A stretch of 64,000 nt of DNA from assembly GCF_050920415.1 (NCBI RefSeq), contig NZ_CP169309.1. One strand, given 5' to 3'. Every line of letters starts with the position of its first letter. Position 1 is the first letter of the stretch. The stretch comes from Escherichia coli (GTDB lineage: Bacteria; Pseudomonadota; Gammaproteobacteria; Enterobacterales; Enterobacteriaceae). Positions 13,297-15,262 of the stretch are shown here, in pieces. The notes beneath the pieces were generated by a model. It saw only the letters and a list, made by a program, of their open reading frames with translations. It made no database searches and had not been told where the DNA came from. A program made the translations under genes and the position numbers.

Positions 13297-14343
13297 ATGC
13301 TGAGCAGAGAGGACTTTTACATGATAAAGCAAATGCGCCAGCAAGGTGCGTATATTGTTGATATTGCCACTCAGGTTGGTTGCTCTGAGCGGACTGTCAG
13401 ACGGTACCTGAAATACCCGGAACCTCCGGCCAGAAAAACACGCCACAAAATGGCCAAACTCAAGCCGTTCATGGACTATATCGACATGCGTCTGGCTGAG
13501 AATGTCTGGAACGGCGAGGTCATCCTGGCGGAAATCAAAGCGATGGGTTATACCGGTGGCCGTTCCATGTTGCGTTACTACATCCAGCCCAAACGTAAGA
13601 TGCGGCCATCGAAGAAAACGGTTCGCTTCGAAACTCAGCCCGGTTACCAGCTACAGCATGACTGGGGAGAAGTTGAGGCTGAGGTTGCCGGGCAACGATG
13701 CAGGGTTAACTTCGCGGTTAATACGCTGGGGTTCTCACGTCGCTTCCATGTCTTCGCGGCACCAAAGCAGGATGCTGAACATACCTATGAGTCACTGGTC
13801 CGCGCCTTTCGCTACTTCGGCGGCAGCGTGAAAACCGTGCTGGTCGATAACCAGAAAGCCGCAGTGCTGAAAAATAACAACGGGAAGGTGGTGTTCAACT
13901 CCGGGTTCCTGCTGCTGGCCGATCACTATGGCTTCCTGCCACGGGCCTGCCGTCCACGAAGGGCCAGAACCAAAGGTAAGGTGGAACGGATGGTGAAATA
14001 CCTCAAGGAAAACTTCTTCGTCCGGTACCGCCGGTTCGACAGCTTCGCCCATGTTAATCAGCTACTGGAGCAGTGGATGGCTGACGTTGCCGACAGGCGG
14101 GAACTTCGCCAGTTCAGGCAGACACCGGAACAGCGCTTCACGCAGGAACAGGTGCATCTGCAGGCGCTGCCAGGTACGGACTTCGATACCAGCTACTTCG
14201 ATATCCGTCATGTCTCCTGGGATGGCTATATCGAGGTTGGCGGGAACCGTTACAGCGTGCCGGAAAGCCTGTGTGGCCAGCCGGTATCAATACGGATCTC
14301 GCTGGATGATGAACTGCGATTTACAGTAATGAGCAACAGGTAG
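13297..14343 (+). CDS. istA: IS21-family transposase IstA, apparently frameshifted near its 3' end
   Basis: HTH N-terminus and DDE-like core. The ORF stops at 14343, but another frame continues ...[13 protein letters not shown] to a TGA at 14466-14468 that overlaps the istB ATG, the usual istA/istB junction. Confidence 0.7.
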   Translation: MLSREDFYMIKQMRQQGAYIVDIATQVGCSERTVRRYLKYPEPPARKTRHKMAKLKPFMDYIDMRLAENVWNGEVILAEIKAMGYTGGRSMLRYYIQPKRKMRPSKKTVRFETQPGYQLQHDWGEVEAEVAGQRCRVNFAVNTLGFSRRFHVFAAPKQDAEHTYESLVRAFRYFGGSVKTVLVDNQKAAVLKNNNGKVVFNSGFLLLADHYGFLPRACRPRRARTKGKVERMVKYLKENFFVRYRRFDSFAHVNQLLEQWMADVADRRELRQFRQTPEQRFTQEQVHLQALPGTDFDTSYFDIRHVSWDGYIEVGGNRYSVPESLCGQPVSIRISLDDELRFTVMSNR

Positions 14344-14467
14344 CATCGCACCGTCTCTGTTCGGCTGTATACGGCTGGCAGACCGTGCCGGAGCATCACG
14401 CCCCACTCTGGCAGCAGGTCAGTCAGGTGGAACACAGGCCGTTGAGTGCCTATGAGGAGCTGTTGTG

Positions 14468-15262
14468 ATGCATGAACTGGAGACACTGCTGGGTCGTCTT
14501 AAAATGGAACATCTGGGCTACCACGTTGAAAGCCTGCTGGAGCAGGCGGCCAAAAAAGAACTGAACTACCGCGAGTTCCTGTGCATGGCGTTGCAGCAGG
14601 AATGGAACGGGAGGCATCAGCGCAGTATGGAGTCCCGGCTGAAACAGGCCCGCTTCCCGTGGGTCAAAACGCTGGAGCAGTTCGACTTCGGCTTCCAGCC
14701 AGGTATCGATCGTAAGGTCGTCCGTGAGCTGGCCGGGCTGGCGTTCGTGGAGCGTAGCGAGAACGTGATCCTGCTGGGTCCGCCTGGTGTGGGTAAAACG
14801 CACCTGGCAGTCGCTCTCGGGGTAAAAGCGGCGGACGCTGGTCATCGGGTGCTGTTCATGCCACTGGATAAGCTGATCGCCACACTCATGAAGGCAAAAC
14901 AGGAAAACCGGCTGGAAAAACAGCTACAGCAGCTTGGTTATGCCCGGGTACTGATACTGGATGAGATAGGCTATCTGCCGATGACCCGCGAGGAAGCCAG
15001 TCTGTTCTTCCGGTTGCTGAACCGTCGATATGAAAAAGCGAGCATCGTGCTGACGTCAAATAAAGGGTTCGCCGACTGGGGAGAGATGTTCGGCGATAAC
15101 GTGCTGGCAACGGCAATCCTGGATCGACTGCTACACCACTCAACCACACTGAACATCAAAGGAGAAAGCTACCGGTTAAAGGAAAAACGCAAAGCGGGAG
15201 TGCTGGCAAAAAACGCCACGCCAATCAGTGATGATGAAATGGCGGCAAGCGGACAACATTAA
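14468..15262 (+). CDS. istB: IS21-family ATP-binding helper IstB
   Basis: Walker [12 protein letters not shown] and Walker [10 protein letters not shown] motifs. Confidence 0.85.

Follow-up and report, generated by a model that had tools for sequence, protein, structure and literature searches.

The 64,000-nucleotide window analyzed here is a stretch of the Escherichia coli chromosome around mtlA, yibI, and yibH. Within yibH lies a complete ISEc62 element of the IS21 family (13196–15319, plus strand, 2124 bp), which carries the transposase gene istA and the helper ATPase gene istB. The features of the element and its borders are the following.

12617–13195, plus strand: 5′ part of yibH (HlyD family), interrupted by the insertion sequence (IS) (ORFs, sister-strain annotation, empty-site match)
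13192–13195, strand not applicable: left copy of the 4-bp target-site duplication CGAC (sequence and empty-site reconstruction)
13196–15319, plus strand: ISEc62, with the ends 5′-TGTCAGCGCCAA ... TTGGCGTTGACA-3′ (sequence)
13196–13245, plus strand: left terminal inverted repeat region, whose blocks are the terminal TGTCAGCGCCAA and the inner TTCACCATTTGGATTGTCCGCT (left end compared with the reverse complement of the right end)
13297–14343, plus strand: istA as read, 348 codons followed by TAG at 14341–14343, with Met1 and Met9 present (ORF, NF033546, Pfam)
14317–14318, plus strand: almost certain lesion, one G of a GG missing, CTGCGGATT in relatives and CTGCGATT here (alignment to eight copies)
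14318–14468, plus strand: downstream end of istA, shifted into the −1 frame, encoding native residues 342–390 (IYSNEQQ...) and ending in TGA at 14466–14468 (translation, protein alignment)
14455–14460, plus strand: GAGGAG, Shine–Dalgarno-like and of putative function, 7 nt upstream of the istB ATG (read from the sequence)
14468–15262, plus strand: istB, an apparently intact gene for a 264-aa AAA+ helper ATPase (Pfam, NCBIfam)
15237–15319, plus strand: right terminal inverted repeat region, with AAATGGCG...GGACAA, AAATGGCG...GGCCAA, and GCGGACA, ending in TTGACA (direct repeat D12, inverted repeat I1, sequence)
15320–15323, strand not applicable: right copy of the 4-bp target-site duplication CGAC (sequence and empty-site reconstruction)
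15320–15881, plus strand: 3′ part of yibH (ORFs, sister-strain annotation, empty-site match)

Similarity to ISEc62 copies elsewhere begins at 13196 and ends at 15319. Removal of 13196–15323, which leaves a single CGAC, restores 200 bp that are 100% identical to intact yibH in several genomes, and this match verifies both the borders and the CGAC duplication. The duplication falls within the 4–8 bp typical of direct target repeats in the IS21 family. The ends are imperfect terminal inverted repeats of the 5′-TG...CA-3′ type with repeated internal motifs that are putative transposase-binding sites; inverted repeat I1 (13224–13245 and 15271–15292) is 82% complementary, and a second conserved inverted block is found about 30 nt inward from each end. 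The insertion inactivates yibH. This lineage also has a rare yibH allele: the reconstructed empty site was matched at 99% or more in 10 of 5,140 genomes, and most genomes match at 90–95%.

The name ISEc62 has indirect support from the NCBI naming of many copies that are 98–99.9% identical to this one, in which the two genes appear as “IS21-like element ISEc62 family transposase” (istA) and “IS21-like element helper ATPase IstB”. The usual isoform rule for a named IS element is more than 95% DNA identity to its ISfinder reference. Over its full length, the element is 99.4% identical to the copy on pDEC15A-1 (an E. coli O111:H21 plasmid, NZ_CP077478.1), which occupies a different insertion site and is intact (IstA WP_000952432.1, IstB WP_000544801.1). 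A second close relative is found in E. coli MFDS1022581 (NZ_CP169399.1), referred to here as the sister strain or sister genome, which has ISEc62 at the same yibH insertion site with the same target duplication; its istA is annotated as intact (1173 bp, WP_000952431.1). Gene order, ends, and the TGATG junction between the genes in both relatives are as in the window.

The element may also be likened, by description, to IS21 of R68.45, the family prototype and a different element of the same family. The common architecture consists of a 390-aa IstA, a 264-aa IstB, a 4-bp duplication, TG...CA termini, and two in-frame istA starts eight codons apart, the comparison of sizes being based on the known protein lengths of the R68.45 prototype. 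Met1 and Met9 of the IstA in the window (13297–13323) have the eight-codon spacing of the two alternative starts of IS21. In IS21, these starts produce the transposase and the cointegrase (PMC10122671).

Beyond the element, the window contains several further features. Degenerate remnants of ISAs1-family transposases (frameshifted, with an internal stop, or partial) lie at approximately 15960–16460 and 18300–18570, and have annotated counterparts at the corresponding sites in the sister genome. Between yibH and yibF, an island (approximately 17100–28330) carries two vgrG/tssI paralogues (approximately 21.8–24.0 kb and 26.0–28.3 kb) that are about 83% identical over 2 kb and are each followed by hypothetical genes, together with an N-acetylmuramidase gene and an EF-hand gene; it looks like a set of orphan type VI secretion spike and effector cassettes. 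A YadA-like adhesin gene (approximately 560–5540, about 1658 aa) has internal tandem repeats spaced by about 250 bp with 83–89% identity.

The main istA frame of the element (ORF 13297–14343, 348 aa) stops at 14341–14343, as a preliminary description of this DNA had noted. The −1 frame (codon starts at multiples of 3) has no stop between 14313 and 14465 and reaches TGA at 14466–14468, as also noted there. In the TGATG at 14466–14470, the A of this native istA stop is the A of the istB start codon (14468–14470). RefSeq annotates the same 1-nt istA/istB overlap in intact relatives, and in intact ISEc62 a 390-aa IstA has a stop that overlaps the istB start, in line with the proposal that this arrangement is the one expected of an intact IS21-family element. 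The family junction, an istA stop overlapping or abutting the istB start, is therefore present in the native istA 3′ frame, and the stop of the frame actually translated in the window is 124 nt upstream of the istB ATG. Given the native frame of the istA 3′ end, all of the defining features that were tested are present, and the element belongs to the IS21 family. The one feature that it lacks is that of an autonomous copy, an uninterrupted full-length transposase frame: in the sequence as given, istA encodes 348 aa instead of 390.

The product as written consists of native residues 1–341 followed by FTVMSNR. It is recognized by the NCBIfam equivalog model for IS21 family transposases (NF033546, cutoff 160) with 280.9 bits, compared with 280.4 for the repaired protein. 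Pfam finds an HTH (3–39), an rve core (113–222), and a Mu-transpos_C_2 domain (291–341), the last of which stops at profile position 50 of 73. In the repaired IstA, this small β-barrel domain covers 291–357. The catalytic DDE triad is formed by D122, D184, and E230. The downstream gene istB matches Pfam IstB_IS21 over the full profile (2–238 of 238, E 2e-88) and NCBIfam NF038214 with 297.4 bits against a cutoff of 200, contains the Walker A motif GPPGVGKT, and encodes a protein with one amino-acid difference from IstB of pDEC15A-1. Given its own GAGGAG 7 nt before the ATG, istB may be translated without coupling to istA.

The break in istA is explained by a single G that the intact copies have and the window lacks, confirming that the gene is frameshifted just before its junction with istB. 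The GG at this position is present in all eight other copies aligned, which come from various replicons and strains and include the same-site copy of MFDS1022581. The deletion lies within istA codon 341, which changes from CGG to CGA and encodes Arg either way. Restoring the G yields a 390-aa IstA identical to WP_000952431.1, the protein of the same yibH insertion in the sister strain. An open stretch of about 50 codons would carry little weight by itself; it is significant because the out-of-frame tail is, residue for residue, the C-terminus (342–390) of intact ISEc62 IstA. The alignment to reference IstA proteins called for in the preliminary description gives the same picture, as all eight comparison copies and the distantly related IS5376 IstA read through the position of 14343, and no reference IstA was found to end at its equivalent with a spacer before istB. 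The broken frame is thus, with very little doubt, a lesion and not a designed feature. At the positions equivalent to 14318–14322, GGATC, with its Dam site GATC, is the sequence of most ISEc62 copies. It is GGATT in both the window and the sister strain, so that this lineage has lost the site beside the deletion.

The expected consequence for the protein can be judged from IS5376 IstA of Geobacillus stearothermophilus (PDB entries 8B4H and 8Q4D), with which the repaired ISEc62 IstA aligns over query residues 1–388 (E 2e-82; the IS5376 chain in 8B4H has 406 aa). The order of domains in IS5376, expected by homology for ISEc62, is a tandem HTH, a DDE core, a small β-barrel, and a helical C-terminal tail, and Pfam finds the N-terminal HTH, rve core, and barrel in ISEc62 IstA as in IS5376. 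Residues D124, D187, and E233 of IS5376 align with the ISEc62 triad. Tyr343 is conserved at the same number in both proteins, the alignment being ungapped across this stretch, and Arg345 of IS5376 is replaced by Asn in ISEc62. The IS5376 tail (...VDTRPLSVYD) aligns with the stretch of ISEc62 IstA that the window encodes in the wrong frame. The barrel of IS5376 IstA comprises residues 300–355 and is followed by approximately 45 residues of flexible helical tail, in which Gln369 touches a flipped base at the end of the transposon; integration falls when this residue is mutated (PMC10122671). The barrels of the IS5376 catalytic subunits dock into IstB, and both a Y343A/R345A double mutant and IstA(1–287) lose stimulation of the IstB ATPase and IstB-dependent integration (PMC11208146). 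IS5376 comes from a distant Gram-positive thermophile, and these barrel and tail mutant data are transferred to ISEc62 by homology alone.

In the sequence as written, translation would enter the TAG at 14341–14343 after seven wrong residues, leaving the last 49 native codons in the −1 frame. The resulting IstA(1–341)+FTVMSNR would keep the HTH DNA-binding modules and the DDE triad, and would lose the final part of the β-barrel (the last strand or strands), including Tyr343, and the entire C-terminal helical tail. Lacking the barrel end that docks IstB and the tail, a copy of this kind should be unable to transpose by itself. Given that its ends and istB look intact, and that the sister genome has four ISEc62 matches, mobilization in trans by other ISEc62 copies is plausible.

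The origin of the missing G was considered by comparison with MFDS1022581, the nearest genome. Over 62.7 kb of aligned sequence, the two differ at 13 places, comprising nine substitutions and four one-base indels, and the window has one extra IS2. The latter (59676–61006, 1331 bp) occupies the malS–bax interval and is flanked by the 5-bp duplication GAATG. The sister genome lacks it, many IS2 copies are 99.9% identical to it, and it looks like a recent insertion. The sister-genome annotation puts an internal stop in yiaO (TRAP transporter binding protein, approximately 48527–49513), and the window should share this stop, as the two sequences do not differ across that stretch. The four indels are the following.

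14317/14318: ISEc62 istA, the window lacks a G
14547–14552 (A6 run): ISEc62 istB, the sister genome lacks an A
54953/54954: IS621, the window lacks a C
55089/55090: IS621, the window lacks a G

The two ISEc62 copies differ from each other by two one-base indels only, over 2211 bases (approximately 99.9% identity). In the sister copy, the A6 run of istB is one A short, and the gene (2820–3613 of the extracted NZ_CP169399.1 locus) is annotated as “frameshifted”; the same inherited yibH::ISEc62 copy thus bears different one-base lesions in the two assemblies.

IS621, an element of the IS110 family (54606–55905, minus strand), has its transposase split in the window into pieces of 215 aa and 76 aa (ORFs 55046–55693 and 54715–54945), a split caused by the loss of one base at each of two sites; the copy at the same position in MFDS1022581 is intact. 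The missing C at 54953/54954 and the substitutions at 54860–54861 together equal the allele of another IS621 copy (tsx–yajD) in MFDS1022581, and the G deletion at 55089/55090 is private. This sharing of an allele between copies suggests that the consensus of at least one assembly mixes the copies, or that gene conversion has occurred.

All four indels thus fall in one of two elements, ISEc62 and IS621, that together account for 5.5% of the alignment (P ~9e-6 if indels were uniformly distributed), and all are deletions in mononucleotide runs (GG, GGG, CCCC, and A6). The 59 kb of unique DNA contains seven substitutions and no indels, and in the IS DNA the private differences are three indels and no substitutions (Fisher P = 0.008). 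Because every indel lies in an IS copy and none in the unique DNA, we lean slightly to the view that the missing G is an error left in the assembly consensus within a multi-copy repeat, a reading that we hold to be narrowly the more probable. Errors in homopolymer length left in repeats after short-read polishing of hybrid assemblies are a documented failure mode (PMC8812927). If the missing G is such an error, the element itself would be undamaged. Against a consensus error, a GG run is very short, unlike the classic long-homopolymer context of such errors. The preliminary description had offered an inactive copy and an indel error as alternatives, and both stand, the lean to error coming from the distribution of the indels.

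The alternative, to which we give a substantial probability a little short of even, is that the G is truly missing, through a recent deletion private to this strain. The element would then be a non-autonomous ISEc62 in which istA is a pseudogene, istB and the ends are intact, and movement needs IstA from other copies. The given sequence carries the deletion, and the concentration of indels in IS copies is also expected, at least qualitatively, for real mutations, since purifying selection clears real frameshifts from the mostly coding unique DNA and IS copies, without protection by host selection, decay freely. Pseudogenes of ISEc62 istA with frameshifts or stops are annotated in other finished genomes, such as one with an internal stop in strain A20 and one with a frameshift in p720632_7. 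The different istB deletion of the sister copy fits independent decay from a common ancestor with both genes intact, and the four ISEc62 matches of the sister genome make trans-acting copies plausible in this lineage. However, the 3–4 indels observed compare with a neutral expectation of approximately 0.04–0.12 in 3.4 kb of IS DNA (at an indel-to-substitution ratio of ~0.1; Poisson P 1e-5 to 3e-4), and private indels in IS DNA without private substitutions are the signature of consensus error.

A further point raised against a real deletion is that the allele is absent from all other public sequence searched. Megablast with a 101-bp probe did not find the deleted allele in 5,426 complete E. 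coli genomes (287 ISEc62 places), the best match being 99.0% identical, that is, with one gap. An exact 36-nt pattern was not found in the GTDB species representatives, nor was the same pattern in JGI metagenome contigs, and an exact look-up of the 348-aa product did not find it in a collection of 15 billion proteins. This absence fits a private mutation equally as well as an error, and so does not discriminate between the two.

Were the deletion real, the shortened protein could in principle act on other copies. IstA(1–341) keeps both HTH modules and the DDE core and cannot dock IstB, and if it bound ISEc62 ends or joined mixed tetramers, it could act as a dominant-negative inhibitor of the other copies in the cell. 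We consider this very unlikely. If it were true, dominant-negative IstA would be a self-made repressor of transposition like the Tn5 inhibitor protein, which the host might favor.

Programmed −1 ribosomal frameshifting or transcriptional slippage, of the type found in IS1 and IS3, would give the arrangement a regulatory role and yield full-length IstA from the sequence as it stands. The geometry is right for this, the downstream frame being −1 relative to the upstream one with an overlap at 14313–14343 (ACTGCGATTTACAGTAATGAGCAACAGGTAG). However, no IS21-family element is known to use frameshifting, every other copy examined has istA in one continuous frame, and the difference from those copies is a simple loss of one base. 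Neither a slippery X XXY YYZ heptamer nor a run of at least five identical bases was found in 14300–14345. The structural papers on the family likewise describe a single IstA polypeptide whose alternative start is N-terminal (PMC10122671). The lack of a slippery site and the single frame in the relatives rule out a programmed shift for practical purposes, and its probability is minute. The idea that an ISEc62-type IstA is naturally 348 aa long, with a spacer of approximately 120 nt before istB and a downstream frame that is open by chance, is suggested by the ORF call only and has a negligible probability, being ruled out by the alignment to the eight ISEc62 copies and IS5376 IstA: RefSeq gives ISEc62 IstA as a 390-aa protein with a stop that overlaps the start of istB, residues 342–390 of that protein are exactly those of the downstream frame, which is also homologous to the C-terminus of IS5376 IstA, and the match to the Pfam barrel profile breaks off at position 50 of 73.

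What the window shows is a commonplace IS transposase gene with a frameshift, or else an assembly error resembling one; in kind, it is nothing new. An annotation should mark this istA as a pseudogene by frameshift, or else correct the base, and should record that an IS disrupts yibH. With regard to data quality, every one-base indel relative to a near-identical genome falls in an IS copy, so the IS “pseudogenes” of this assembly should not be read as biology without read-level checks; counts of active IS copies and studies of IS decay are the uses affected. If the deletion is real, the copy in yibH is a non-autonomous ISEc62 that would need its transposase from other copies.
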